DNA of 32,000 nucleotides from Nostoc punctiforme PCC 73102 (GTDB lineage: Bacteria > Cyanobacteriota > Cyanobacteriia > Cyanobacteriales > Nostocaceae), in NCBI RefSeq assembly GCF_000020025.1, contig NC_010628.1, positions 270,001 through 302,000 on the forward strand. The letters run 5' to 3'. Position 1 is the first letter of the stretch. Every line of letters begins with the position of its first letter. The notes under the pieces were generated by a model. It made no database searches and was not told the origin of the DNA. It saw nothing but the letters and a program-made list of their open reading frames with translations. A program made the position numbers and the translations under genes. Positions 1-14,293 of this stretch are shown one piece after another.

Positions 1-74
1 ACGAGCAATTAAAAAATCCCCTAGAGGTCTGATATTAATACGACTCTAGTTATAAGTTGAAGAGGATAAAAAAG

Positions 75-908
75 ATGGTTCAAAGTATAGGCGGTATAGC
101 GAAATATTCAGCTACCGACCTAGACCGATTTGCTCAAGAACTGAATAAAGACGGAATTTGTGTCATTCCTGGTGTTTTTGAGCAAAAATTAATTGACGAG
201 TGGACACAAGCTTTTGAAAAATTATTTCACGAGCGTCAAAATCAACCAGGTGGGTTGGCTCCTCGTGAAATTTCCCGCTACTATCTGACCTTGCCTTGGA
301 TTTATCCATTCGCTAATGAATTGGTTTTTGCCAACCCAGTGATTATGGGTGTCCTAGAGCGCGTGTTTTTCCAAGAATACGTGATGGTTCAGATGGGGGT
401 TGATGTCCCATTTCAGGGTTCAGATTATCAGGAGATCCATCGGGATTTTCGCCCATTGTTTAGCGATGGGCTACGCCCCGCCGTAGGCGATCGCATTGTA
501 ACCCCACTTTACGCCCTAGCAGTTAACTTTCCCCTGGTGGAAGTAACCGCAGAAAACGGCCCGTTCCAAATGGCACGAGGTACTCATGTATTACCGCGAG
601 AAGAAGGATTAAAGAAGGTTGCTAGTGGTGAAATTCCGATGGAATCCTTTTATATGCAGCCTGGTGACGTGATGGTGCGATCGCCTTTAGCACTGCATCG
701 GGGTTCCCCAAATCGGACAAACCAGCCAAGACCTATGGTAGTCATGGGCTATGCAATGCATTGGTTGCACACACCAAAAGTAGAATTGACTCTCCAACAA
801 GACTACTATGAGAGCCTACCGGTGGAGATGAGACAGATGCTGCGGTGTCAGGTAGTTGAACAGTTACCTAAAGAAAAACTTGAAACTTATGTAAATTTCA
901 AGTATTAG
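75..908 (+). CDS. Fe(II)/2-oxoglutarate dioxygenase, phytanoyl-CoA dioxygenase (PhyH) family
   Basis: ORF 57..908 starts at a TTG in the track. The ATG at 75 is preceded by AAGAGGA (60-66). The translation has an HxD motif (QEIHRDF) and a distal His (LALHRGSPNRT), typical of the PhyH-type 2-His-1-carboxylate facial triad. Confidence 0.75.
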   Translation: MVQSIGGIAKYSATDLDRFAQELNKDGICVIPGVFEQKLIDEWTQAFEKLFHERQNQPGGLAPREISRYYLTLPWIYPFANELVFANPVIMGVLERVFFQEYVMVQMGVDVPFQGSDYQEIHRDFRPLFSDGLRPAVGDRIVTPLYALAVNFPLVEVTAENGPFQMARGTHVLPREEGLKKVASGEIPMESFYMQPGDVMVRSPLALHRGSPNRTNQPRPMVVMGYAMHWLHTPKVELTLQQDYYESLPVEMRQMLRCQVVEQLPKEKLETYVNFKY

Positions 909-937
909 TAGTTGAAATTAGTCACTTCTCGCTTTCG

Positions 938-992
938 TGAGGTATAAGGTAGGGACGCACAGATGCACGTCCCTACAAATTTCTGTACCTCA
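938..992. repeat. Nested inverted repeat just after the PhyH stop; likely terminator or Nostoc-type palindromic repeat
   Basis: Inner perfect 9-bp stem gtagggacg (949-957) pairs with cgtccctac (968-976). Outer arms are tgaggta (938-944) and tacctca (986-992). Confidence 0.55.
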
Positions 993-1227
993 TGTACTAG
1001 GAACAGCTGATAAATTTATTTTCTCTTTGGTTATAACGATAGTGAAGTTATTGTAACTATTAGTAAATATTAAGCTAGATTGTGCTTTTACTTACCAATT
1101 TTAAGCATTTTTTTAAAACTTTATTAAAAAAGTTATACAACTAGTTCTACCTAAGGATAGGAAATCTCCGAGGAACTGAAAGCTATTATTTTATTAAAAT
1201 AACCTATCAAATAAGGTAAAAATTTTT

Positions 1228-1464
1228 ATGACATCACAAACTCCTCCAGATAGCCGACAAGATGAAGTTAAATACGATCCTCAAGATAACCCTGGAACCC
1301 AAACAACTGTGCCAACTACAGAAGAGGGTGATACTCCTCTTGATGAAAGATATCGGATGACTGGTCAAGAATCAGGTACAGATGTTCATCATGGTGCTGA
1401 ATCTGAAGCACCTGGAGGTGCTAAGTCACCTGGCCATCCTAATCAAGGAACGGACTCTCGTTAA
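1228..1464 (+). CDS. Small hydrophilic, low-complexity (probably disordered) protein, 78 aa
   Basis: The ORF has an ATG start. It is rich in P/T/Q/D/E/G, has no hydrophobic segment, and is followed by a strong hairpin at 1569-1603. I recognise no family. Confidence 0.4.
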   Translation: MTSQTPPDSRQDEVKYDPQDNPGTQTTVPTTEEGDTPLDERYRMTGQESGTDVHHGAESEAPGGAKSPGHPNQGTDSR

Positions 1465-1568
1465 AAAGGTTCTTGCATCTAATCAAGATGAATGTTCATT
1501 TTTGTCATTGCAAGATTTAATTTTTCTAAAGTTTGCCGCAATTTATCCTAAACTTAGAATCAATCTTT

Positions 1569-1610
1569 CCAGCTTAAAATTTTTTATCTAAATTTTAAGC
1601 TGGTTCGCTT
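1569..1610 (+). terminator. Rho-independent terminator candidate
   Basis: Perfect 13-bp inverted repeat ccagcttaaaatt (1569-1581) and aattttaagctgg (1591-1603) with a 9-nt loop, followed by a T-rich tract (ttcgctttattt). Confidence 0.5.
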
Positions 1611-1651
1611 TATTTGAAAAAACTCCACAGTTTTAATATTTATCAAAAAAA

Positions 1652-1679
1652 GCAGAGGACAGGAGGCAGGAGGCAGAAG
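1652..1679. repeat. STRR-like heptamer tandem repeat (GCAGGAG-like, about 4 units)
   Basis: The sequence reads gcagagg acaggag gcaggag gcagaag directly. Confidence 0.6.
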
Positions 1680-1867
1680 AAATACTGCACCAAATTAAAA
1701 ATTTGGTGGCTACCGTTAAGTACAATGCTGAATCCCCTTCTAAGCGGAACCTCCTACTTTCTGCCTCCTTAAATTCACCCTTTTGCTGCTACCTTGCTTT
1801 AGTTAACTTTGCTGCTCTAGAATTTATTAACTTCACATTTGGCGATCGCAATATTTACAGAATTGAA

Positions 1868-2884
1868 ATGCAAACTTATACTAATCCAGTCTACAAAGGT
1901 TATTTTGCCGACCCTTTTGTTTGGCAACACGAAGGGGTATATTATGCAATCGGCACTGGCGCAGCAGAAGCAGAAGGAACGGTAGATGAAATACCGGATG
2001 CAGCAAATATTAACTCCAATAACAAATCGCGTGTCTTTCCTCTGTTACGCTCTTTCGACTTTGTAAACTGGGATTATGTTGGTAACGCACTATTGCGGCC
2101 AGATCCAGCCCTTGGCGATAATTTTTGGGCCCCCGAAGTTGCTTACTGCAATCGCCAGTTTTATCTCTACTACTCAGTGGGACATGAAGACAAGAATCAT
2201 CAGTTACGTGTGGCTACAAGCGATACTCCATTAGGCCCTTATCAAGATATTGGTGAGTCACTTGTAGATCCAAAATCTTGTCCTTTTGCGATCGATCCAC
2301 ACCCATTCCGGGATGACGATGGACAATGGTATTTGTTTTACGCCCGTGACTTTCTGGATACATCGGATAGAGCGCGTGCTGGCACAGCATTAGTTGTAGA
2401 TAAACTCCAAAGCATGACTAAGCTTGTTGGTGAAGGGAAAGTGGTTTTACGTGCGCGATCCGATTGGCAACGGTTTTTAGCCAACCGTTTGATGTACGGT
2501 GAAATTTATGATTGGCATACTTTAGAAGGTCCTTGCGTTCGTAAGCATGAAGGGAAATACTACTGCTTTTATAGTGGTGGACGTTGGGAAACTGATAACT
2601 ATGGTGTAGATTATGGCGTTGCTGACAACGTGATGGGGCCTTACTCTGATGCAGGTAACGAAACCGGGCCACGGGTGCTAAAGTCTGTTCCTAATTTTGT
2701 TAGAGGGCCGGGACATAACTCTATTGTTCTTGGGCCAGATGGTAAGACTGAGTATGTTGTTTACCATGCTTGGACGGAAAATATGGATATGCGGCAAATC
2801 TGTTTAGATATGCTGATCTGGAAACCAGAAGGGCCATGTTGCAATGGCCCTACCTGGACACCGCAGACTATCAGCAACTATTGA
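1868..2884 (+). CDS. Glycoside hydrolase family 43 (beta-xylosidase/arabinofuranosidase-like five-bladed propeller)
   Basis: The ORF is open from 1703, but that upstream part is low-complexity and runs just downstream of the heptamer repeat (1652-1679). The ATG at 1868 begins MQTYTNPVYKGYFADPFVW. Motifs NFWAPEV, YLYYS, YLFYARD and GGRWE are characteristic of GH43. Confidence 0.8.
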   Translation: MQTYTNPVYKGYFADPFVWQHEGVYYAIGTGAAEAEGTVDEIPDAANINSNNKSRVFPLLRSFDFVNWDYVGNALLRPDPALGDNFWAPEVAYCNRQFYLYYSVGHEDKNHQLRVATSDTPLGPYQDIGESLVDPKSCPFAIDPHPFRDDDGQWYLFYARDFLDTSDRARAGTALVVDKLQSMTKLVGEGKVVLRARSDWQRFLANRLMYGEIYDWHTLEGPCVRKHEGKYYCFYSGGRWETDNYGVDYGVADNVMGPYSDAGNETGPRVLKSVPNFVRGPGHNSIVLGPDGKTEYVVYHAWTENMDMRQICLDMLIWKPEGPCCNGPTWTPQTISNY

Positions 2885-3360
2885 AGATTTTGCGATACAT
2901 TAACACCGCTCACTTTCGCTGGTATAACAACGCTATAGTAGCCAGCTGCGATCGCAGCTAATGCATTAAGCAAAACATTAGCGCCGAACAATGGCATTAA
3001 ACCGAAAAATGTCTTACCCAAAGGCAATAATCCGATGATGGCTAGCAAGGCATAAGAAACTGCAAAACCACGATTGAATAGACGCGCAGTGGTAGTGTTG
3101 TTGTAAGAAGTAATTCCTAATAATCCTACGGCGCAACGTACAATGTTATGCAAAAAATTGGTGGGAATTGCGCCAAAGATATAACCAAAACCCGCAGAAT
3201 AAGCACCAGCAGATTCATCAAGTGGAACAAAAGATTCGCTCGTTCCTGGTAATGAAACCAAGGCTGGTACAAATCCAGCTAAACCTAAAAGTAAATAAGT
3301 GATTCCGATAGCCAAAGCAATGTAACGCTCGATCATTTTTGCCTGATTAATGTTTTCCAT
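2878..3360 (-). CDS. DUF4383-like small membrane protein (4 predicted TM helices)
   Basis: 160-aa ORF with four hydrophobic helices and the motif LLLGLAGFVP. It is convergent with the GH43 gene and its 3' end overlaps it by 7 nt. Confidence 0.7.
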   Translation of the reverse strand: MENINQAKMIERYIALAIGITYLLLGLAGFVPALVSLPGTSESFVPLDESAGAYSAGFGYIFGAIPTNFLHNIVRCAVGLLGITSYNNTTTARLFNRGFAVSYALLAIIGLLPLGKTFFGLMPLFGANVLLNALAAIAAGYYSVVIPAKVSGVNVSQNLQ

Positions 3361-3660
3361 CTTTTTTCTCTTGGTAAGTGTGTAGATGTTTACAAAATAG
3401 TAACCGCTAGCTAAGAAATCATGAGAATCTAATTTATTAATAGATATAAATAGATTGCTTCTAGCTGGTTAAATGTCTAAACACAATATTTATCATTCAA
3501 CTTTTTCTTTCATGTATTTCACTCTATCAAAAGTAATGAATACTATCTTAAGTAGGGCTTAGAAGTTGGGCTGATTTAGTTTTTATGCTTCTCTTATTTT
3601 AAGAAAAATTTCCTAATCAATTATTTGTATTTTTGTCATATTCCGTTACTTCAGCAACTT

Positions 3661-3924
3661 CTATAAATGGTATTTTTGTTCATGGTTTAGCATTTTATTT
3701 TGAGGAAAATTATTTAAGGGTGAATAGATATCTACCTCATATAACCAAATCATAGTCTCATAACCAACTCGACCCATTTCTGGCTCTAAACCCATAGGCA
3801 TCTCTAGCAAATAAACCCAGCTACCTGACTGAGGGCGGTAATTTTTGATGATGCCTTCTCCGCCGATAAACTCTACCTTTTGACCGCTACGAAACTTAGG
3901 CGCTGACAAAACAATTGCATTCAT
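3661..3924 (-). CDS. Hypothetical small soluble protein, 87 aa
   Basis: ATG-initiated ORF with normal composition. No family recognised. Confidence 0.45.
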   Translation of the reverse strand: MNAIVLSAPKFRSGQKVEFIGGEGIIKNYRPQSGSWVYLLEMPMGLEPEMGRVGYETMIWLYEVDIYSPLNNFPQNKMLNHEQKYHL

Positions 3925-4057
3925 TACTCGTTATTCCTTCGACGAATATAGGACTCATCTTTGATTATTGAAAAAATTCTCTATAGCTCAAAGAGGTTTC
4001 TTTACTGTTTCCTATTGCCTACTTTCTGTTGTCTTCTTGCGCGAACAGAAATCAAAG

Positions 4058-4120
4058 ACGCTCGATAGCGTAGCGTTAGCGACGCAGGAGCGTCTGACTC
4101 GCTACCGCTTCGCTATCGGA
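4058..4120. repeat. Nostoc-type small dispersed palindromic repeat
   Basis: Arms cgatagcgtagcg (4063-4075) and cgcttcgctatcg (4107-4119) pair with one mismatch. They flank an inner hairpin gacgc-agga-gcgtc (4081-4094). Confidence 0.55.
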
Positions 4121-4329
4121 TTGCTATAGGGTGATAACTAACGTTGTAGCTAATATAAAACTTATGATTATCTGTCACAGGTTTCAATGTATTCTCTGTC
4201 AGCCGTTTTAAGATTAAGTTTGAGTTTTTATACCTAAAGTTATAATTTTAATTGAACAAATTAAATCTTTCAGAGTAAAAAGCTTCCAGCACTACCTACC
4301 TAGTTATTTGAAAACTCTGAGATAGAAAA

Positions 4330-4362
4330 AAGCGATCGCTCCATCATTAGAAGCGATCGCTT
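4330..4362. repeat. Double-HIP1 hairpin
   Basis: Two copies of the self-complementary agcgatcgct (4331-4340 and 4352-4361), 11 nt apart, can form a 10-11 bp stem. Confidence 0.45.
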
Positions 4363-5059
4363 GAGGTTTATGAATTGAATTACAACTAATGTTACACACA
4401 GTCAAAAGGCTTTTACCCTACCCAAGGTTGAGAGAACAGATATATCATCAGGGTGAAAATTATAATACTTGTTTCTAATAAACTAACAATAAAAGAAATT
4501 ACTTCATTTACTATGGTTTACAAAATAATTATTACAGCAATATGTATTAAGCATAACAAATCAATAGATTATTTGTAAAAAAAAAACACTATTTGATACT
4601 TAAAAATAGTCAATTTATATATACTCTTAGGTTTAAATATTTAATATGAATAAAAAAGTAAGATAATAAATAAACTGAGTTTATTAATTTTAATCTTAAA
4701 GATAATTGTTTTAATGAGCTTGTGTACGAAATCGAACAGACAAACACAACTATATTTGCATAAGCTTAGAAATCACAATTGCGTTACATAAATTAATATT
4801 TACTTATTAGATTTTAGATATTTATAAAAAAATAGTGCTTAAGACTTAATAAGAAAGCAACTTTATATTTATTTGGGTAGATGAAAGAAATAGATATAAA
4901 ACAGTACATTGTTATTAATGCAACCAAGTATTTATTATACCAATTCGATATTGAAAAGCAGCAAAATATGTTGCAAGCTTTTGTATGAAAGTAAGCTTGG
5001 TGCTGTCTTAGAAAGAAAAGGTATTAGCGTTTAGCTAGTCAGAATTAATAATTTAAATA

Positions 5060-7510
5060 ATGAGACGAACTATGACAAGTGAAAAATCTCAAGTCAAAAA
5101 CAACGGTGTCAGCAATGTTATTTCGCCGAAGCAGCGTAAAACAAAGCGATCGCAGTTAGCCCAAACGCAATCATCGAGTCCGTCACGGTTGAATTTAACT
5201 TCGTCTAGCAAAAAAGTTCAATCAACAGAAACCTTTAAAGACACACCTGATATAGTTTGTTTATCTCATTTGCGTTGGAATTTCGTTTATCAAAGACCGC
5301 AACATCTTCTGAGTCGCTGCGCCCAAGGAAAGCGAGTGTTCTTTATTGAGGAGCCAATTTTCTCTGAAGAACCCTTGGCAAGCTTAGATATAAACGAAGA
5401 TTCTAATGGAGTAGTTGTGGTTGTGCCACACCTACCACAAGGTTTAAGTGAAGAAGCAATCAACGCAGACTTAAAACTACTAATAGATAGTTTGTTTGCA
5501 GAGCATAACATCAACAAATACATTTGTTGGTATTACACACCAATGGCGATCGCTTTTACCCGCCACTTGCAACCCCAAGCCGTGGTGTATGATTGCATGG
5601 ATGAATTGTCTGCATTCCAAGGCGCATCACCCACTTTAAAGAATTACGAAGCCGAATTATTCAGCCGTGCAGACTTAGTATTTACAGGCGGACAAAGCCT
5701 TTACGAAAGTAAGGTAAACCAGCACCCCAACGTTTATGCCTTTCCCAGCAGTGTAGATGTCGCCCACTTTGGACAGGCGAGAAATGTTCAAGAACCAGAA
5801 GATCAAGCTCATATTCCTCATCCTCGCCTTGGGTTCTTTGGTGTAATTGACGAACGGATGGATATTGAACTGCTTGCTGGTATTGCCGAAGCCCGTCCCG
5901 ACTGGCATTTAGTAATTATTGGGCCAGTTGTCAAAATCGATCCAGCAAATCTGCCACAGCATGAAAATATCCATTATCTCGGTGGCAGAGATTATAAACA
6001 ACTACCTGCCTATTTAGCAGGCTGGGACTTAGCAATGTTGCCCTTTGCGCGTAACGAGTCAACACGTTTTATTAGCCCTACCAAAACTCCAGAGTATCTT
6101 GCCGCAGGTAGACCTGTAGTATCTACCTCAATTCGAGATGTAGTGCGTCCTTACGGAGAGTCAAAACTGGTACGCATTGCAGATACAGTTTCTGAGTTTG
6201 TTACCGCCGCAGAACTTGCAATGCAAGAAGATACCCCAGCCTCAGAATGGTTGAGTCGAGTAGATGTCTTTTTAGAAAAGATTTCTTGGGATCGCACTTG
6301 GGCATCAATGATGAAGCTGATTGACTCTGCCATTGCAGCCCGTGATGGTGAAGACAAAGCTAACTCCACAGGTGCGGCTGGTAAACAAGCACCAAATATC
6401 ATTACCAGAGATTTTGTCTTCGATTACTTGGTTGTCGGCGCTGGTTTTTCTGGTAGCGTCATTGCTGAACGTTTGGCAACTCAGTCTGGTAAAAAAGTGC
6501 TGGTTGTAGACAAGCGCAACCACATAGGCGGTAATGCCTACGATCATTATGACGATCATGGCGTTCTCGTACACAAATACGGTCCCCACATCTTTCACAC
6601 CAACTCCCGCGAAGTTTTTGAATACCTCTCGCGCTTTACTAAGTGGCGGTCTTACGAACATCGCGTCCTTGCCAGCGTAGACGGGCAGCTTGTTCCGATT
6701 CCGATCAACCTCGACACCATCAATAAGCTGTATGGCATGAATCTCAATTCATTTGAGGTGGAGGAGTTTTACAAATCCCTTGCTGAACCAATGGAATACA
6801 TCCGTACTAGTGAGGATGTGGTGGTAAGCAAAGTTGGTCGAGAACTGTATGAAAAGTTTTTCCGAAATTATACGCGCAAGCAATGGGGACTTGACCCATC
6901 AGAACTTGACAAATCAGTAATTGCCAGAATTCCCACACGGACTAATCGTGACGATCGCTATTTTACCGATAGCTACCAAGCAATGCCACTGCATGGCTTT
7001 ACCCGGATGTTCGAGAATATGCTCAATCACCCGAACATCAAGGTAATGCTCAACACTGATTATCAGGAAATCCAAAAAGCTATACCTTGCCGCGAGATGG
7101 TTTACTCTGGGCCTGTTGACGAATACTTTGATTATCGTTACGGCAAATTACCATATCGCTCGCTTGATTTCAAGCATGAGACGCACAACACGACTGTGTT
7201 TCAAAAAGCGCCAGTAATTAACTATCCCAATGAACAGCTTTATACTCGTGTGACAGAGTTTAAATACTTAACTGGTCAAGAACACTCTAAAACTAGTATT
7301 GTTTATGAGTTTCCCAAAGCTGAGGGAGACCCTTATTATCCTGTACCGCGTTCTGAAAATCAGGAAATTTACAAGAAATACAAGGTGCTGGCAGATGAAA
7401 CTCCAGGGATCTATTTTGTAGGACGATTAGCGACCTACAAATACTACAACATGGATCAATGTGTTGCTCAAGCTCTGTCTGTGTACAAACAAATTGCGGT
7501 TAAGGCTTAA
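5060..7510 (+). CDS. glf: Two-domain fusion: N-terminal GT-B (GT4-like) glycosyltransferase plus C-terminal UDP-galactopyranose mutase (Glf)
   Basis: 816-aa ORF. Residues 1-60 are an S/Q/K-rich low-complexity leader. Residues about 60-440 look like a GT-B glycosyltransferase (DIVCLSHLRWNFVYQRPQHL; C-terminal SPTKTPEYLAAGRPVVST). Residues about 455-816 carry the classical UGM motifs: DYLVVGAGFSGSVIAERLA, GGNAYD, YGPHIFHTN, YTRKQWG, RDDRYFTD, KLPYRSLDF, GDPYYPV and GRLATYKYYNMDQ. Confidence 0.85.
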   Translation: MRRTMTSEKSQVKNNGVSNVISPKQRKTKRSQLAQTQSSSPSRLNLTSSSKKVQSTETFKDTPDIVCLSHLRWNFVYQRPQHLLSRCAQGKRVFFIEEPIFSEEPLASLDINEDSNGVVVVVPHLPQGLSEEAINADLKLLIDSLFAEHNINKYICWYYTPMAIAFTRHLQPQAVVYDCMDELSAFQGASPTLKNYEAELFSRADLVFTGGQSLYESKVNQHPNVYAFPSSVDVAHFGQARNVQEPEDQAHIPHPRLGFFGVIDERMDIELLAGIAEARPDWHLVIIGPVVKIDPANLPQHENIHYLGGRDYKQLPAYLAGWDLAMLPFARNESTRFISPTKTPEYLAAGRPVVSTSIRDVVRPYGESKLVRIADTVSEFVTAAELAMQEDTPASEWLSRVDVFLEKISWDRTWASMMKLIDSAIAARDGEDKANSTGAAGKQAPNIITRDFVFDYLVVGAGFSGSVIAERLATQSGKKVLVVDKRNHIGGNAYDHYDDHGVLVHKYGPHIFHTNSREVFEYLSRFTKWRSYEHRVLASVDGQLVPIPINLDTINKLYGMNLNSFEVEEFYKSLAEPMEYIRTSEDVVVSKVGRELYEKFFRNYTRKQWGLDPSELDKSVIARIPTRTNRDDRYFTDSYQAMPLHGFTRMFENMLNHPNIKVMLNTDYQEIQKAIPCREMVYSGPVDEYFDYRYGKLPYRSLDFKHETHNTTVFQKAPVINYPNEQLYTRVTEFKYLTGQEHSKTSIVYEFPKAEGDPYYPVPRSENQEIYKKYKVLADETPGIYFVGRLATYKYYNMDQCVAQALSVYKQIAVKA

Positions 7511-7512
7511 AT

Positions 7513-7582
7513 AATTCGTAATGGGCTTTTCTGCGAGACGCTAAAAGCGAATGCCCCGCTACGCTAACGTAATTCGTAATTA
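7513..7582. repeat. Small dispersed repeat bounded by direct aattcgtaat copies, just after a stop codon
   Basis: aattcgtaat occurs at 7513-7522 and 7571-7580, flanking gccccgctacgctaacg. A shorter copy of the same element lies at 15189-15235. Confidence 0.65.
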
Positions 7583-7600
7583 AGACTGCTCTGTATTTAG

Positions 7601-7782
7601 TAGGGTGCGTTATGGACATTAGGGCATCTTTTCAAACTACTCGTTTAGCCTCTTAATTTTTTAGATCCCCCTAAATCCCCCTTTTTAAGGAGGACTTTAA
7701 GAGATGAGATTCTTAGCCCCCCTTTTGAAGGGGGGTTGGGGGGATCTAAGACTTTGAAAATACGCCCTAGTCCTAACACACC
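7601..7782. mobile_element. MITE-like nested palindromic element, non-coding
   Basis: The left end tagggtgcgttatggacattagggc is roughly the reverse complement of the right end gccctagtcctaacacacc. An inner pair is ttagatccccctaaatccccc versus ggggggttggggggatctaag. No transposase ORF is present. Confidence 0.55.
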
Positions 7783-7790
7783 AAAAATCT

Positions 7791-7925
7791 AGGATGGTGC
7801 GTTAGCCTCCGGCATAACACAATGCCAGTTGCTACAACGGAGAGAACCTCCCTTCGGGTTCACCAGTCGCCTACGGCGGGAAACCCGCCTACAGCGCTGG
7901 ATTCACCGCAACGCACTGGCTCCCT
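7791..7925. repeat. GC-rich structured dispersed-repeat-like element
   Basis: Contains the hairpin ggcggg-aaa-cccgcc and flanking imperfect inverted arms gccagttgc and gcaacgcactggc. Its composition differs sharply from the surrounding spacer. Confidence 0.4.
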
Positions 7926-7978
7926 TACAAAACTTAAAAAGAACGCATCAAATAAAATATCAGCTTGAGTTGTAAATT

Positions 7979-10186
7979 ATGATTTCTGCTTTCAACTCGA
8001 CACTCAAAACTAACAAAGCACAACTTCCCCTACAAGTTTGGGCTGGTGTAGAGTGTACGGTTAATCGTGTGGGTGAAGAGTATCTCGATCAGTTAGAACG
8101 CAATGGTCATGCAACGCGCTTGGATGACCTAGATTTATTTGCTGAACTTGGCATACATGCCATCCGCTATCCAATACTTTGGGAGAGGATAGCGCCCAAT
8201 GGTTTGGAGAATGCTGATTGGTCGTGGGCAGATGAAAGACTGGGGCGTTTGCGCGAACTCGGCATCCGTCCGATTGTGGGATTAGTGCATCATGGCAGTG
8301 GCCCGCGTGATACCAGCTTGGTAGATCCAGAATTTCCTGAGAAACTAGCGGTGTTTGCTCGTGCGGTTGCAGAACGCTATCCTTGGGTTACACATTACAC
8401 ACCCATCAACGAGCCACTGACAACAGCCCGATTCAGTGGGATGTACGGTCACTGGTATCCTCACGGACGGGACAATTTAACTTTTGCCCGTGCTTTGTTA
8501 GTAGAGTGTAAAGCGATCGCTCTTTCGATGCAAGCAATCCGGGAAGTCAATCCCAATGCCCAACTCTTACAAACTGAAGATTTGGGTAAAACTCATAGTA
8601 CCCCAAAGCTGGCTTATCAAGCAGAATTTGAGAATGAACGTCGCTGGTTGAGTTTGGATTTATTGTGTGGCCGAATCAACCCAACTCATCCAATGTGGGG
8701 TTACTTGCGCGACTGTGGTGTAAGCGAGTCTGAACTTGAAGAATTTTTGCAATATACTTGTCCGCCTGGCATTATCGGCATTAACCATTACCTGACAAGC
8801 GAACGCTTTTTAGATGAAAACCTAGAAAACTATCCAGCTTGGACGCATGGTGGTAATGGTCGGGACAAGTATGCAGATGTAGAGGCAGTGCGAGTTTGTG
8901 CTGAGGGTTTGGCAGGCCCCCGGACATTGCTCAAAGAGACATGGGAACGTTATAAACTACCCTTTGCTGTCACTGAAGTTCACCTGAGTTGCACCCGTGA
9001 AGAGCAGCTACGCTGGCTCAATGAAGTGTGGAATGCAGCCCAAGAATTACGAGACCAGGGCGCAGATGTTCGCGCTGTAACTGTTTGGGCACTTCTCGGC
9101 AGCTACGATTGGAATAGTTTAGTGACTCGCTCGGCAGGATACTACGAGTCAGGCGTGTTCGATTTGCGCTCATCGCGTCCCAGACAGACAGCGATCGCTA
9201 AAATGGTGCGAGATTTAACCACTGGACATAAACCCAATCATCCATTACTTGATACACCAGGATGGTGGCATCGAGAAGAGCGCCTATTATATCCAGCCGT
9301 CAGTTGTCGCGTGTCTCCCCCATCTCTCCCGTTTTCCTCCCCTGCTTCCAATCGTCCCCTGGCGATCGTCGGAGCCACAGGAACACTAGGCAATGCTTTT
9401 GCTCGGTTGTGTCAAGTGCGAGGAATTTCATATTGCCTGCTAAGACGGCAAGATATGGACATTGCCAATCCTGCTTCCGTCAATAAAGCACTTGCTGAGT
9501 TGCAACCGTGGGCAGTTGTTAACGCTGCGGGATACGTGCGGGTGGACGATGCCGAACGTGAACCTGATATTTGTTTGAAAGTAAACGCTGAAGGGGCAGC
9601 GATTTTAGCTGCTGCTTGCGCTCAACATAATGTGGCGCTGGTAACTTTCTCTTCAGATTTGGTATTCGATGGTGCTGAGTCGAATCCTTATGTCGAAACT
9701 GATACCGTTGCGCCCCTCAATATATATGGGTGCAGCAAAGTTTTGGCAGAAAAGCTAGTATTGCAGGCTCATCCGGCATCACTAATGATTCGTACCAGCG
9801 CATTTTTCGGTCCGTGGGATGAATACAACTTTGTGACGATCGCCCTACGGCAATTAGCTGCTGGTAATACTTTTGTTGCAGCCGAAGATGCGATCGTTTC
9901 GCCTACTTATGTACCCGATCTTGTCCATGCCAGCCTTGATTTATTGATTGATGGTGAAAAAGGTTTGTGGCATTTGGCTAACAAAAGTGCTGTTGCTTGG
10001 GCTGACTTGGCACGATTAGCGGCGAAAAAAGCAGGTGTAAGTGTCAGCAATCTAATTGCTCGTCCTACACAAGAACTTGGTTTCATTGCTCCCCGCCCAG
10101 CTTACAGCGTTCTTGGTAGCAATCGAGGTGAATTAATGCCACACCTTGACAGTGCAATTTCTCGTTACTTGGAAGAAAAAAGTTAG
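7979..10186 (+). CDS. Two-domain fusion: N-terminal GH1-like (TIM-barrel glycosidase-like) domain plus C-terminal RmlD-like NAD(P)H sugar-nucleotide reductase domain
   Basis: 735-aa ORF. The N-terminal half has NEP (YTPINEPLT) and a second Glu context (FAVTEVHLS), resembling the GH1 acid/base and nucleophile positions. The C-terminal half has the Rossmann motif IVGATGTLG, YxxxK (YGCSK) and overall RmlD substrate-binding-domain character (VVNAAGYVRVDDAE, FSSDLVFDG). Confidence 0.8.
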   Translation: MISAFNSTLKTNKAQLPLQVWAGVECTVNRVGEEYLDQLERNGHATRLDDLDLFAELGIHAIRYPILWERIAPNGLENADWSWADERLGRLRELGIRPIVGLVHHGSGPRDTSLVDPEFPEKLAVFARAVAERYPWVTHYTPINEPLTTARFSGMYGHWYPHGRDNLTFARALLVECKAIALSMQAIREVNPNAQLLQTEDLGKTHSTPKLAYQAEFENERRWLSLDLLCGRINPTHPMWGYLRDCGVSESELEEFLQYTCPPGIIGINHYLTSERFLDENLENYPAWTHGGNGRDKYADVEAVRVCAEGLAGPRTLLKETWERYKLPFAVTEVHLSCTREEQLRWLNEVWNAAQELRDQGADVRAVTVWALLGSYDWNSLVTRSAGYYESGVFDLRSSRPRQTAIAKMVRDLTTGHKPNHPLLDTPGWWHREERLLYPAVSCRVSPPSLPFSSPASNRPLAIVGATGTLGNAFARLCQVRGISYCLLRRQDMDIANPASVNKALAELQPWAVVNAAGYVRVDDAEREPDICLKVNAEGAAILAAACAQHNVALVTFSSDLVFDGAESNPYVETDTVAPLNIYGCSKVLAEKLVLQAHPASLMIRTSAFFGPWDEYNFVTIALRQLAAGNTFVAAEDAIVSPTYVPDLVHASLDLLIDGEKGLWHLANKSAVAWADLARLAAKKAGVSVSNLIARPTQELGFIAPRPAYSVLGSNRGELMPHLDSAISRYLEEKS

Positions 10187-10236
10187 TAGTCTGGCTGGCA
10201 ATCTAATTTTAAGGGGAGCAGAGGAGTAAATCTATA

Positions 10237-10288
10237 CCCCATTCCCCATACTTCGACTGCGCTCAGTACAAGTTCCCCATTCCCCATC
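10237..10288. repeat. Heptamer (CCCCATT) doublets flanking a common Nostoc repeat core
   Basis: ccccattcccca at 10237-10248 and 10275-10286 flanks tacttcgactgcgctcagtacaagtt. Confidence 0.5.
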
Positions 10289-10295
10289 TCAAATT

Positions 10296-11282
10296 ATGTC
10301 AACTATTTTAGTCACAGGAGGAGCCGGATATATTGGCTCCCATGCTGCATTAGCTCTGAAAAACGCAGGTTATGAAGTAATCGTTTTGGATAATCTGTCG
10401 AACGGACATCGAGAACTTGTAGAAGAAGTTTTACAGGTAAAATTGATTGTTGGAGATATGAGCGATCGCTCTCTTCTCGATGACATATTTTCAACTCACA
10501 ACATAACTGCGGTTATGCATTTCGCTGCTTACATCGCAGTGGGTGAATCTGTTACCGACCCAGCCAAATATTACCAAAATAATGTTGCAGGCACTCTGAC
10601 ACTTTTAGAAGCAATGCTTGCTGCGTCAGTTAACAAATTTATTTTTTCTTCTACTTGCGCTCTTTATGGTGTACCAAAGTTCGTTCCCCTTACCGAAGAA
10701 CATCCGCAAGATCCCATTAGTCCCTACGCTATTAGCAAGTGGATGGTAGAAAGAATTTTATCTGATTTTGATACAGCCTATAATTTAAAGTCTGTACGTT
10801 TCCGTTACTTTAACGCCGCAGGTGCTGACCCTAATAGGTTGTTGGGTGAAGACCACGAACCTGAAACTCATCTCATACCGTTAGTACTACTAACTGCTTT
10901 TGGGAAGCGTGAATCTATTTTGATTTTCGGTACAGATTACCCTACCCCAGACGGAACTTGTATCCGCGATTATATTCATGTGACTGACTTGGCACAAGCC
11001 CATATTTTAGGTTTAGAATATCTACTCAAAGGTGGAGAAAGCGAAGTATTTAATCTAGGAAATGGCAGTGGTTTTTCAGTCAGAGAAGTAATAGAAACTG
11101 CTAAAGAGATAACAGGCAAAGAAATTAAAATAGAAGAACGCGATCGCAGACCAGGTGACCCTCCTATTTTAGTTGGCAGCAGCGACAAAGCAACTAAAAT
11201 CTTGGGTTGGCATCCAGAGTATCCTAATTTAAACGAAATTATTGCCCATGCTTGGAAATGGCATCAACAACGACATAAGTAA
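10296..11282 (+). CDS. galE: UDP-glucose 4-epimerase
   Basis: 328 aa. Motifs ILVTGGAGYIGSH, SSTCALYG, YAISKWMVE (YxxxK), RYFNAAGA and IRDYIHVTDLA. Confidence 0.9.
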   Translation: MSTILVTGGAGYIGSHAALALKNAGYEVIVLDNLSNGHRELVEEVLQVKLIVGDMSDRSLLDDIFSTHNITAVMHFAAYIAVGESVTDPAKYYQNNVAGTLTLLEAMLAASVNKFIFSSTCALYGVPKFVPLTEEHPQDPISPYAISKWMVERILSDFDTAYNLKSVRFRYFNAAGADPNRLLGEDHEPETHLIPLVLLTAFGKRESILIFGTDYPTPDGTCIRDYIHVTDLAQAHILGLEYLLKGGESEVFNLGNGSGFSVREVIETAKEITGKEIKIEERDRRPGDPPILVGSSDKATKILGWHPEYPNLNEIIAHAWKWHQQRHK

Positions 11283-11390
11283 AGACATTTTAAAACATCC
11301 TGTAAGGCTTAGAAATTCATTCTTTAGGTATTTGTAAGCCAATGGTAGAACTTGTTAAATTAAAGAATGGTTTAAAACAAGTATCAGTTA

Positions 11391-12347
11391 ATGAGCGTAA
11401 TCGAGTTTCAAAATTTACCTAATGCACAGCAGTGCCAAAAAAGTACAGTGCCCTCTTTAGGGCTAGTTTGCATCACCTCTGATAAACAAGTGCGCTTTCG
11501 GACAATGACGCGCACCCGATACTTAAAACTTTCTCTTAGCGATCGCGAAAGTGCCCTGAGTGAACTGTATCGCCATAACTTACAGCGCTTACATGATGCC
11601 CTCTCCTTTTGTCAGCAGAATAAAATTCAGCTTTATCGGATGTCTTCTAATTTATTTCCCCTAAGTGACTTAGAAGACGAAATTGGCGCAAATATATTAG
11701 AAGCAATGAGCGCTGATTTAGCAACAATCGGTCAACGAGCAAATGCATTGAACATCAGAATGGTGTTGCATCCAGATCAATATGTAGTGCTAAGTTCTGA
11801 TTCCCCCGAAGTGGTACAGGCAAGTATCACTAATCTAGCAGGACATGCACGTATACTTGACTTACTGGGATTACCGCGATCGCCTTGGTCATTGATGAAT
11901 ATTCATGGTGGCAAATCTCAACGGGCTGAACAACTAGTAAAAATAATTTCCGAACTACCAGAAAACATCAAAAGTCGCTTGACTCTAGAAAATGATGAAT
12001 ACGCCTATAGTGCCGATGAGATTTTAGCAGTATGTCAGCAAGCTGGTGTGCCGATGGTATTTGATGCCCATCATCATATTTGCCACGAAAATTTGGATAG
12101 CTACGATCATCCGAGTGTAGCATCAATGTTTTACGCAGCGCGAGAAACTTGGAAAAATCCAGATTGGCAATTAGTCCATATTTCCAATGGTGAGCAAGCT
12201 TTCAATGACAGAAAACACAGCGACTTGATTACCGATATGCCTAATGTTTACCACCAAGCACCGTGGATTGAAGTCGAAGCCAAACGAAAAGAAGAAGCGA
12301 TCGCACTTTTGCGTTCTTGGTGGCTGATGAACAATAATTGTACGTAA
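11391..12347 (+). CDS. uvsE: UV damage endonuclease (UvdE/UvsE)
   Basis: 318 aa. Motifs LGLVCIT, YRMSSNLFP, LHPDQYVVLSS, LENDE and FDAHHH, typical of the UVDE TIM-barrel nuclease. Confidence 0.85.
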   Translation: MSVIEFQNLPNAQQCQKSTVPSLGLVCITSDKQVRFRTMTRTRYLKLSLSDRESALSELYRHNLQRLHDALSFCQQNKIQLYRMSSNLFPLSDLEDEIGANILEAMSADLATIGQRANALNIRMVLHPDQYVVLSSDSPEVVQASITNLAGHARILDLLGLPRSPWSLMNIHGGKSQRAEQLVKIISELPENIKSRLTLENDEYAYSADEILAVCQQAGVPMVFDAHHHICHENLDSYDHPSVASMFYAARETWKNPDWQLVHISNGEQAFNDRKHSDLITDMPNVYHQAPWIEVEAKRKEEAIALLRSWWLMNNNCT

Positions 12348-12604
12348 CTTAGAGACTTCTAGTTTATGTTCTCTGCACCTCTGCTATTGTGTCTGCGTTA
12401 ACCATAGTGAAACTTACACGTTTACAGTCTCATTTATGGTTAATACTCACTTAATTGGTCTATAAACCATTTTATAGAAGCTTGATTTTAAGGCAATTAT
12501 CTATAGCTAAGTTGCTTATTTCTCTTGGTAGATTAAATCAAAATTAAAAAAGAACAAAATAACAATATACATAGCTGAAAACTAAACTTTAAATTGTTAG
12601 TTTT

Positions 12605-14293
12605 ATGCAAAAAATTTATGGCAATGTTCAAGGTATCAAAGCTAGTCAGATCAAACGACTGCAACAGCTTTATGAGCAAAATCAACCAGCAGATAGATTT
12701 ATTACGCCAGAATTTGCTCAAGCCTTAGCTACAATCAGTCAACAAATTCATCACCCAATTTGTTGTTATCTCAATCGGCGTGGACAAGTTATCCGAATTG
12801 CTGTAGGAACACCCATTCAAACTCAAATTCCACCTGAAGAATTACCCCGCCGCAGTGCAGAACGTTTGAGCGGAATCCGTTGTATTGCTACTCAAGTTAA
12901 ATCAGAACCACCTGATGAAGCTGCTTTGATTGCAATGATGCGTCAGCGCTTAGATGCTCTTGTCATGTTAACCGCAATTGATGGCAAAGTAAAAGAAGCT
13001 TTTCTAAGTTATCTTTTTCCTGATTCAGAAAGTCCTTGGGTAATTTCACCTCCTCTAAGTTTGGACGATCTAACCGAACAGGAATTTGATGAACTAGTTC
13101 ACGAATGGGAAAGAGAAATTGTTGACGCAGGGGATGGAATATTCCTATCTCAAGAAATTGTCTCTGACCAAGATAGGGTGCTGCTGGTAGGAGTGCAGAC
13201 AGAAGATATCTCAGTTCAACGATTTGAAGATGGACTTGCAGAACTTGTGCGTTTGGTTGAAAGTGCTGGAGGAATTGTACTCGATACAATGCGGCAAAAG
13301 CGCGATCGCCCACATCCTCAAACAGTAGTCGGTAAGGGAAAAATTGAAGAAATCACCCTTTTGGCTCAAAAACAAAGAGCTAATCTAATCGTTTTTGACC
13401 GAGATATTTCTGCATCTCAAGCCCGTAATTTAGAACAGGAAATAGGCATCCGAGTTGTAGACCGCACAGAAGTAATTTTGGATATTTTCGCTCAACGCGC
13501 TCGCACTCAAGAGGGTAAATTACAAGTAGAACTGGCGCAACTCGAATATATGTTACCTCGGTTACGTGGTCGCGGTCAGGAGATGTCTCGATTAGGTGCG
13601 GGGATTGGTACGCGAGGTCCTGGTGAAACAAAACTAGAGACCGAACGGCGAACAATTCAACGACGAATCAATCAGTTACAGCAGGAAGTAAACGATTTAC
13701 AAGCACATCGCGCCCGGATTAGACAACAACGACAACAGCAAGAAATTCCAGTTTTAGCATTAGTTGGTTATACCAATGCTGGTAAATCTACTTTGCTGAA
13801 TGTGTTAACCAATGCGGAGGTTTTCACAGCAGACCAACTATTTGCTACCCTCGACCCAACAACCCGCAAGGTGGTAATTACAGAACCCGAAACACAAGAA
13901 CGTCGCTCGATTTTGCTTACAGATACTGTAGGGTTTATTCACGAACTCCCGCCACCACTGATGGATGCGTTTCGCGCCACATTGGAGGAAGTAGTTGAGG
14001 CAGATGCGATGATTCATGTTGTGGATTTATCCCATCCAGCTTGGGAAAGCCATATTACAAGTGTGCTGGAAATACTTGAAGAAATGCCTGAGATTCCAGA
14101 AAAAAGTTTGATTGCTTTTAACAAGGTTGACAAAGTAGATAGCGAAACCTTGGACAGAGTTCAACAAGATTATCCCGAAGCTGTTTTTATATCAGCAACT
14201 CAGCGCTTGGGTTTAGAGACTTTAAAAATGCGATCGCTGCAACTAATTGACGAACCTGTTAAAGCGATTGCAGTCCCACAAAATTCATACTAA
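12605..14293 (+). CDS. hflX: GTPase HflX
   Basis: 562 aa. HflX N-domain signature GTRGPGETKLETERR, G1 GYTNAGKST, G3 DTVGF and G4 NKVD. Confidence 0.9.
   Translation: MQKIYGNVQGIKASQIKRLQQLYEQNQPADRFITPEFAQALATISQQIHHPICCYLNRRGQVIRIAVGTPIQTQIPPEELPRRSAERLSGIRCIATQVKSEPPDEAALIAMMRQRLDALVMLTAIDGKVKEAFLSYLFPDSESPWVISPPLSLDDLTEQEFDELVHEWEREIVDAGDGIFLSQEIVSDQDRVLLVGVQTEDISVQRFEDGLAELVRLVESAGGIVLDTMRQKRDRPHPQTVVGKGKIEEITLLAQKQRANLIVFDRDISASQARNLEQEIGIRVVDRTEVILDIFAQRARTQEGKLQVELAQLEYMLPRLRGRGQEMSRLGAGIGTRGPGETKLETERRTIQRRINQLQQEVNDLQAHRARIRQQRQQQEIPVLALVGYTNAGKSTLLNVLTNAEVFTADQLFATLDPTTRKVVITEPETQERRSILLTDTVGFIHELPPPLMDAFRATLEEVVEADAMIHVVDLSHPAWESHITSVLEILEEMPEIPEKSLIAFNKVDKVDSETLDRVQQDYPEAVFISATQRLGLETLKMRSLQLIDEPVKAIAVPQNSY

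Follow-up and report, generated by a model that had tools for sequence, protein, structure and literature searches.

A glycosyltransferase fused to UDP-galactopyranose mutase, and the gene cassette around it, in Nostoc punctiforme and other bacteria

The fused proteins of the locus

Three open reading frames (ORFs) on the same strand of a 32,000-nucleotide stretch from Nostoc punctiforme PCC 73102 (the window, from here on) were studied. The 816-aa product of the first is 100% identical to a PCC 73102 protein annotated as "UDP-galactopyranose mutase", and the locus tags Npun_F0220, Npun_F0221 and Npun_F0222 (shortened below to F0220, F0221 and F0222, as for their neighbours) were assigned through a published expression table. 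In an initial annotation, made from the letters of the window, the three genes had been described as a fusion of a glycosyltransferase (GT) of the GT-B type with a UDP-galactopyranose mutase (UGM), a fusion of a glycoside hydrolase family 1 (GH1)-like domain with an RmlD-like reductase, and the epimerase GalE. As shown in Table 1, the coordinates given there match the ORF listing exactly, and every one of those domains was confirmed by Pfam and NCBIfam profile searches.

The GT-UGM fusion is genuine, in such a way that fusion proteins of around 800 aa are found in well over 100 independent Nostocales assemblies, the best 120 matches being all at least 80% identical to F0220. Likewise, 39 of the examined loci encode GH1-RmlD as one ORF. 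Because both recur in many independent assemblies and in other lineages, the possibility of an assembly or frameshift artefact was rejected. NCBI also lists an 812-aa form of F0220, starting at M5.

In the C-terminal half of F0220, NAD_binding_8 was found at aa 458-526 and GLF (PF03275) at aa 599-795, the latter with 264 bits and over profile positions 1-203 of 203, and the protein scores 402.6 bits against the UGM equivalog TIGR00031 (cut-off 303.75). This half is around 78% identical over 359 residues (E = 1.7e-186) to the crystallised UGM of Deinococcus radiodurans (DR_A0367, PDB 3HDQ). It presents the FAD motif GxGxxG as GAGFSG, and is identical at the positions aligned to Y179, W184, R198, Y209, R305, Y335, Y370 and N372 of the D. 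radiodurans enzyme, which we take to be those of the active site. The D. radiodurans UGM is a stand-alone protein of around 400 aa, whereas that of Nostoc is half of a fusion. Homology to the crystallised enzyme thus shows the C-terminal half of F0220 to be a UGM, predicted to contract UDP-galactopyranose (UDP-Galp) to UDP-galactofuranose (UDP-Galf).

The N-terminal half is more divergent. Pfam Glyco_trans_1_4 (PF13692) was detected at aa 273-385 with 38.7 bits (cut-off 27), and PF00534 reached 21.6 bits, below its gathering cut-off of 26.4. The best NCBIfam match is a TuaH-like family (teichuronic acid; 1e-24), with 86.9 bits under an equivalog cut-off of 550. As a sequence search of the domain against the PDB returned no match at E ≤ 1, its AlphaFold2 model (predicted local distance difference test, pLDDT, 85.7; predicted template modelling score, pTM, 0.79) was searched against the PDB with Foldseek. 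The model has the two Rossmann domains of the GT-B fold, and the top 50 matches are all GT-B enzymes, mostly of family GT4, the best ones being MshA, sucrose-phosphate synthase, PimA, BshA and WaaG, with GumK, PglA and OtsA also present. For the GT4 enzymes with soluble acceptors, namely MshA, BshA, sucrose-phosphate synthase and the tll1591 glucosyltransferase, the fold matches have E = 5e-15 to 1e-11 and template modelling scores of around 0.6-0.7; these are soluble, cytoplasmic enzymes whose products are metabolites or of the compatible-solute type, but a fold match of this kind does not separate small-molecule from lipid acceptors, as PimA and WaaG score similarly. They further differ from the Nostoc domain in that the identity is 11-17% and the donors are UDP-GlcNAc or UDP-Glc. 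Within the invariant stretch 'SPTKTPEYLAAG(K/R)PVVSTS' of the GT, the first Glu of the EX7E motif is present and there is no Glu seven residues on. Stand-alone orthologues of the GT are 57-79% identical across phyla, and those found with the GT domain in non-heterocystous cyanobacteria have 430-450 aa and 66-79% identity.

F0221 joins a weak but above-threshold Glyco_hydro_1 match (aa 49-380; threshold 22.6 bits) to a strong RmlD_sub_bind match (aa 462-716), and both halves keep the catalytic residues of their families. The acid/base Glu145 of the NEP motif and the nucleophile Glu333 of the TE motif align with those of GH1 beta-glucosidases, and they are invariant in a set of 37 full-length GH1-RmlD fusions from several phyla. 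In the reductase half, the short-chain dehydrogenase/reductase (SDR) motifs GATGTLG (GxxGxxG), SSD and YGCSK align with the RmlD structures 3sc6, 1vl0 and 1kbz; the GxxGxxG motif and the Ser-Tyr-Lys triad are conserved in the 37 fusions, with the triad Ser replaced by Thr in one. Nevertheless, F0221 differs from the known enzymes of both families. It scores 59.6 bits against the beta-glucosidase equivalog TIGR03356 (cut-off 478.5) and, by a small margin, also falls below the cut-off of the RmlD equivalog TIGR01214 (209.9 against 224.05 bits). The glycone motif NFEW of GH1 (W-x-x-x-N-F-E-W) is replaced by SYDW (GSYDW), with the Asp kept in 36 of the 37 fusions and a Gly in the remaining one. 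Finally, homologues of rmlABC were found neither in the window nor among the recurrent neighbours of the loci described below. We know of no characterised protein that joins GH1-type and RmlD-type activities. These data strongly support two intact active sites in F0221, which according to the neighbourhoods described below is the third constant partner of the cassette.

Table 1. Coordinates of the genes, domains and intergenic regions at the Npun_F0220 locus (positions in the window).
Feature	Position	Strand	Details
PhyH-like Fe(II)/2-oxoglutarate dioxygenase, Npun_F0215	57-908	+	Pfam PhyH 1.1e-13
GH43 glycosidase, Npun_F0217	1703-2884	+	Pfam Glyco_hydro_43 5.3e-45
DUF4383 small membrane protein, Npun_R0218	2878-3360	-	Pfam DUF4383 1.1e-32
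AT-rich 5' intergenic region of F0220	3925-5059	.	1135 bp; GC 0.22 over 4501-5000
Npun_F0220	5060-7510	+	816 aa; GT-B glycosyltransferase + UGM fusion
N-terminal Ser/Lys/Gln-rich extension of F0220	5060-5236	+	poorly conserved, variable in GT alignment
GT-B (GT4-like) glycosyltransferase domain, putative UDP-Galf-dependent transferase	5237-6394	+	Pfam, AlphaFold2 fold
UDP-galactopyranose mutase domain	6407-7510	+	TIGR00031; ~78% identity to D. radiodurans UGM
F0220-F0221 spacer	7511-7978	+	468 bp; palindromic repeat 7661-7749; co-transcribed with F0220
Npun_F0221	7979-10186	+	735 aa; GH1-like + RmlD-like fusion
GH1-like (clan GH-A) glycosidase domain	7979-9298	+	PF00232 45.8 bits; NEP + TE glutamates
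RmlD-like SDR reductase domain	9341-10186	+	PF04321 207 bits
GalE, Npun_F0222	10296-11282	+	328 aa; TIGR01179 459.7 bits (cut-off 262.3)

Conservation of the gene neighbourhood

A scan with the GT alignment over one genome per GTDB species detected GT relatives in at least 594 genomes. For the comparison of gene neighbourhoods, the best 80 loci (GT identity 57-98%) and two more were used, all 82 selected by GT similarity alone. These loci cover at least eight phyla (Cyanobacteria, Acidobacteriota, Bacteroidota, Chloroflexota, Myxococcota, Armatimonadota, Chlorobiota and Silvanigrellales), with many Pyrinomonadaceae among the Acidobacteriota and with Hymenobacter, Pontibacter and Cnuella among the Bacteroidota. 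UGM is the next gene downstream of the GT in 74 of the 82, and in one further locus it lies 2.4 kb from the GT, after GH1-RmlD; its identity to the Nostoc domain in those 75 loci is 62-98%. Fusions were counted in 18 scan loci, 16 of which belong to Nostocales, and in two cyanobacteria identified outside the scan. Apart from Nostocales, the lineages with a single GT-UGM ORF are Oscillatoria PCC 10802, a Chloroflexi metagenome-assembled genome (MAG), a Bacteroidota MAG, Snowella, Gloeocapsopsis and another lineage at 58% identity. In Microcoleus and Phormidium a stand-alone GT is followed by a separate glf gene and then by the GH1-RmlD fusion. In the reverse direction, two GH1-RmlD homologues were taken as the starting point, and each has a fused GT-UGM directly upstream.

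Adjacency and repeated fusion are Rosetta-stone evidence, and give strong comparative support to GT and UGM working together. On this basis the GT is probably a UDP-Galf-dependent enzyme, in line with the dedicated galactofuranosyltransferase that the initial annotation had deduced from a single locus. The GT-UGM pair persists even where there is no catabolic gene nearby, as in Hymenobacter L069, L080 and L082. Other combinations were also seen in public data (among them proteins P0431, P0478 and P0417), such as GalE-UGM fusions of 716 and 1069 aa, and GTs of the cassette family fused to a different flavoprotein, amine-oxidase-like (1281 aa), or to N-terminal domains of around 380 aa that lack annotation.

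The remaining neighbours were grouped by label-free clustering of every ORF in the window and in the 82 loci, the window being excluded from the counts. GH1-RmlD-type proteins, including divergent GH1-only paralogues, were found in 62 loci, followed by GH2 (38 loci), GalT (21), GalE (17), GalK (17), GH43 (14, across phyla), a PhyH-like dioxygenase (12, including Leptolyngbya-type cyanobacteria and Pyrinomonadaceae) and an M24-family protein (12), and a STAS protein is recurrent in Oscillatoriales loci. By contrast, no Wzx/Wzy, ABC exporter, OPX/PCP protein, chain-length regulator, polyprenyl-phosphate (priming) transferase or polymerase is recurrent in the 82 loci. The compact three-gene unit first proposed for positions 5060-11282 is too narrow, as the cassette also takes in the GH43 and PhyH-like genes upstream of it in the window, together with GalK, M24, GalT and GH2 outside the window, and its conservation is uneven: UGM and GH1/RmlD are constant, whereas GalE lies within 10 kb in only 21 of the 82 loci, mostly of Nostocales, where in most cases it directly follows GH1-RmlD.

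In Pontibacter (L050, 12325-13851) and Cesiribacter (L054, 12325-13914) a different clan GH-A-like glycosidase of around 510-530 aa directly follows UGM, and GH1-RmlD is absent within 10 kb in the former and upstream of the GT in the latter. This arrangement suggests that a glycosidase beside UGM may matter more than the GH1 family itself.

Regarding the individual neighbours in Nostoc, GalK (F0213), M24 (F0212) and GalT (F0208) are situated just outside the window, on the far side of its start, according to the expression table. The GH2 of the cassette matches a PDB entry named 'beta-D-galactofuranosidase 2' (2e-69), and the best PDB match of the GH43 protein F0217 is 4qqs (9e-39). The true start of F0217 is probably M56, at around position 1868, which would give 338 aa, like its relatives. 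NCBIfam gives no specific name to the PhyH-like, M24, GH43 and GH2 neighbours, and an M24 match to ectoine hydrolase (2.4e-4) was too weak and was left unused. The cassette enzymes, F0217 included, have no hydrophobic or transmembrane segments and no signal peptides; the exception in the neighbourhood is the DUF4383 protein, which also recurs in cyanobacterial copies of the cassette (L003, L006 and L015, and the distant Gloeocapsopsis locus L084). On the other side of the cassette, UvsE (F0223) and HflX (F0224), at 11391-14293, were rejected as members because their synteny is restricted to close Nostoc relatives.

A 78-aa ORF between the PhyH-like and GH43 genes (1228-1464, +; MTSQTPPDSRQDEVKYDPQDNPGT...), which is probably Npun_F0216, encodes a very hydrophilic and probably disordered product that resembles a hydrophilin or stress protein. 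In Microcoleus FACHB-672 (L001, 4246-7619) the cassette has BON-domain and YflT-like general-stress proteins as neighbours, which in combination with the hydrophilic ORF of the window hints, faintly, at a context of osmotic stress or desiccation.

Expression and non-coding regions

The expression of the locus was taken from the RNA-seq data of Gonzalez et al. 2019 (PMC6495340, Data Set S1), as normalised values at 0, 1, 6, 12 and 18 h after hormogonium induction. In the wild type, F0220 shows values of 223, 1, 1, 12 and 23 at these times, and in the delta-sigJ mutant of 760, 18, 5, 7 and 6. The spacer between F0220 and F0221, listed as a 'predicted RNA', follows F0220 in the wild type at a lower level (115/1/0/9/20), and so do F0221 (27/3/2/3/3) and F0222 (6/1/1/1/2), in such a way that all four features are co-regulated, with polarity. 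The cassette behaves in the delta-sigC and delta-sigF strains as in delta-sigJ. F0220 is thus on in vegetative filaments and decreases more than 200-fold within 1 h, independently of the hormogonium sigma cascade, and with the operon off in hormogonia a role in hormogonium polysaccharide was rejected.

Other genes of the window respond in a similar manner in the same data set. R0218 falls with F0220 (22, 9 and 3 in the wild type; 608, 247 and 18 in delta-sigJ), F0216 is highly expressed at 0 h (730 in the wild type and as much as 6020 in delta-sigJ) and decreases around 10-fold at 1 h, like F0220, and UvsE and HflX are also down at 1 h (HflX from 54 to 2). The decrease of these last two makes the rapid shut-off part of a broad early response, not one specific to the cassette. 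It also has to be considered that the time-zero cultures contained 4 mM sucralose, and that induction consisted of a wash into sucralose-free medium, so that the drop could reflect a lost sugar or osmotic signal and not development; sucralose is a galacto-configured analogue of sucrose.

The 1.1 kb AT-rich region upstream of F0220, from which complex and possibly developmental regulation had been suggested, is present as described (Table 1) and is conserved only among very close Nostoc relatives. The fall of F0220 from 223 to 1 within 1 h supports developmental regulation in part, but it is confounded by the sucralose change, and the region itself lends no sequence support to complex regulation, since a scan of positions 3300-11500 for sigma-70 promoters and terminators detected sites no more commonly than in shuffled sequences. 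An Rfam search of positions 1-12500 gave one sub-threshold match, to a plant miRNA (MIR815), at the palindrome of the spacer, which was judged to be due to chance. Within the upstream region, positions 4330-4362 form a hairpin of two HIP1 (GCGATCGC) sites, after which the minus strand has a T-run; this hairpin is kept in close Nostoc relatives. The left border of the upstream region is an 87-aa ORF, Npun_R0219 (3661-3924, -), without a family match and with 0-5 normalised units in all 20 samples; being essentially unexpressed, R0219 may not be a real gene, in which case the region upstream of F0220 would extend to around 1.7 kb.

The palindrome of the spacer is an inverted repeat with 20-nt arms (TTAGATCCCCCTAAATCCCC / GGGGGGTTGGGGGGATCTAA). 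As the spacer is transcribed together with F0220 while F0221 reads around 8-fold lower, this palindrome may attenuate read-through into F0221.

A putative galactofuranose cassette and its possible products

We tentatively propose that F0220-F0222 are the core of a conserved galactofuranose (Galf) cassette, probably spread by horizontal transfer, that would make a soluble, cytoplasmically recycled Galf glycoside or oligosaccharide, and not an envelope polymer assembled by the locus. According to the established biochemistry of its family, GalE (F0222) would supply UDP-Galp, the UGM domain of F0220 would convert it to UDP-Galf, and the GT domain would use the latter at once. Fusion or tight adjacency may channel the furanose nucleotide, pulling the unfavourable equilibrium of the mutase forward. 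F0221 would most likely trim, remodel or turn over the Galf glycoside, or make or modify the acceptor, and GH2, GH43, GalK and GalT could recycle the product to UDP-Gal. A soluble product is proposed because the companions of the GT-UGM pair are soluble glycosidases and Leloir enzymes, and no export or polymerisation genes are recurrent. The presence of small-acceptor enzymes (MshA, sucrose-phosphate synthase, BshA and OtsA) among the closest solved relatives of the GT is consistent with this, and its identity of 57-70% between phyla argues for one conserved acceptor, which would then be the same in all of them. A narrower and rather unlikely version is that the cassette makes and recycles a previously unknown galactofuranoside serving as a compatible solute or as an oligosaccharide reserve. 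The cassette would respond to the physiological state, being active in filaments that are vegetative or exposed to sugar and inactive in hormogonia, and the compound would be common to many bacteria associated with soil, crusts and lichens, namely Nostoc, Microcoleus, relatives of Chroococcidiopsis, Pyrinomonadaceae, Hymenobacter, Pontibacter and, probably, Deinococcus.

The association of a mutase gene with Galf transferases has well-known counterparts. In the arabinogalactan module of mycobacteria and corynebacteria, the Glf gene adjoins those of GlfT1 and GlfT2, which use UDP-Galf at the cytoplasmic face; however, these are GT-A (GT2) polymerases that act on a decaprenyl-linked primer and are encoded in a cell-wall locus, whereas the Nostoc GT is a GT4-like GT-B domain, fused to the mutase and without lipid-carrier or export genes nearby. 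In the D-galactan I locus of Klebsiella O1/O2 (glf, WbbO and WbbM) and in pamABCDE of Kingella, glf is also encoded together with Galf transferases, but export is by an ABC transporter and the primer is undecaprenyl-linked, both absent from the cassette. WbbO has a GT4-type domain, so GT-B enzymes can use UDP-Galf.

Several data weigh against a soluble, recycled product. The donor specificity of the GT is deduced from its gene context, and its canonical EX7E motif appears incomplete. As GT4 enzymes normally retain the configuration, alpha-Galf, the rarer linkage, would be expected. The adjacency seen across phyla is partly inherited by horizontal transfer of the block, which limits the independence of the loci. 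In some loci, from Pyrinomonadaceae and others (L032, 3047-7767; L021; L029; L058), a sugar ABC importer of the CUT2 type is encoded, composed of two permeases, an ATPase with two domains and a binding protein that is a lipoprotein. This layout resembles that of YtfQRT-YjfF of E. coli, a galactofuranose binder, and with such an importer the glycosidase and Leloir genes could form a separate module for galactoside catabolism beside GT-UGM. A peripheral cytoplasmic GT could also decorate a lipid-linked unit built elsewhere, as cyanobacterial exopolysaccharide (EPS) genes are scattered. Furthermore, (1->3,5)-beta-D-Galf has been reported in the exopolysaccharide NS0-1 of Nostoc sphaeroides, a species that has the cassette and encodes the GH1-RmlD partner (P0282). 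Finally, neither GalT (F0208) nor PhyH (F0215) is co-regulated with F0220, F0215 being roughly constant (PMC6495340).

The NS0-1 polysaccharide also speaks for decoration of the envelope or EPS, the context in which the initial annotation had placed the Galf. There, the fused enzyme would add Galf side residues, at the cytoplasmic face, to a lipid-linked unit of EPS, lipopolysaccharide (LPS) or sheath that is assembled and exported by genes elsewhere, and the glycosidase and Leloir genes would supply or salvage galactose. All the characterised bacterial glf genes that we know of serve surface glycans, the solved relatives of the GT include PimA, WaaG, GumK and PglA, with lipid-linked acceptors, and its TuaH-like match (1e-24) belongs to teichuronic acid synthesis. 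Even so, we consider such a role somewhat unlikely, since Wzx/Wzy, ABC exporters, OPX/PCP proteins and priming transferases are not recurrent in the conserved neighbourhood, the cassette enzymes lack hydrophobic segments, and a single conserved acceptor is hard to square with surface glycans that vary between strains, in diderm cyanobacteria, Chloroflexota and others. The silence of the operon in hormogonia further separates it from the hormogonium polysaccharide.

A different interpretation is that of an island for galactoside catabolism, in which the GH1-like, GH2 and GH43 glycosidases and GalK/GalT/GalE would break down galacto-oligosaccharides taken up from outside, such as those of plant or lichen partners. 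GT and UGM would then be functionally separate hitch-hikers, or the donor of the GT would be a pyranose. In Ran et al. 2010 the cluster was interpreted as serving the metabolism of galactose or plant mucilage, and it was found to be pseudogenised in the Azolla symbiont, which is obligate; the CUT2 importers of some loci and the uncoupling of GalT and PhyH expression from that of F0220 are in agreement with it. However, the adjacency and fusion of GT and UGM are the most constant traits of the cassette, even in loci without catabolic genes nearby, and GH1-RmlD directly follows the pair and is co-regulated with it. To our knowledge UGM has no catabolic role, since free Galf equilibrates non-enzymatically to the pyranose. 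We consider such an island improbable. We regard as highly improbable a pathway for a 6-deoxy-hexofuranose like that of Fcf1/Fcf2 in E. coli O52, where the RmlD-like domain would reduce an NDP-4-keto-6-deoxyhexose and the mutase would contract, for instance, NDP-fucopyranose. As in the dTDP-D-Fucf pathway, an SDR of the 4-ketoreductase type is indeed encoded together with a Glf-type mutase, but the mutase is around 78% identical to the crystallised UGM and above the UGM equivalog cut-off, no NDP-hexose 4,6-dehydratase is recurrent in the 82 loci, and the Leloir genes with GalE point to galactose. The soluble Galf glycoside remains the product that we tentatively favour.

Searches of the searchable literature for Npun_F0220-F0222 and neighbouring tags, for natural GT-UGM fusions, and for hormogonium polysaccharide with UGM returned nothing relevant, and no work characterising these genes, the fusion or the GT family was found. 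The novelty claimed initially is thus maintained in that no characterised GT-UGM fusion or genetically defined cyanobacterial Galf pathway was found, but the cluster itself had already been described in Ran et al. 2010, under the name 'galactose/polysaccharide metabolism' and as a feature shared only by N. punctiforme and the Azolla symbiont. Such exclusivity no longer holds. The enzyme class of each component is already known, as are modules of glf plus transferase; what is new is the GT family, its repeated fusion to UGM, the constant glycosidase-reductase partner, and the export-free, salvage-rich context.

Galactofuranose is absent from mammals, and the bacterial Galf pathways known to us all feed surface glycans, mostly in pathogens. 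The cassette GT family has no solved or characterised relative and shows an unusually high sequence conservation across at least eight phyla, and the database names of the cassette proteins are generic ('UDP-galactopyranose mutase', 'family 1 glycosylhydrolase', 'dTDP-4-dehydrorhamnose reductase'). Identification of the product would assign a function to this very large set of genes, and could bring to light Galf metabolites of a new class or a new family of Galf transferases. N. punctiforme is genetically tractable, which makes the question directly testable, and its fused enzyme would be a natural system, in one polypeptide, for the hand-over of the disfavoured UDP-Galf to a transferase.

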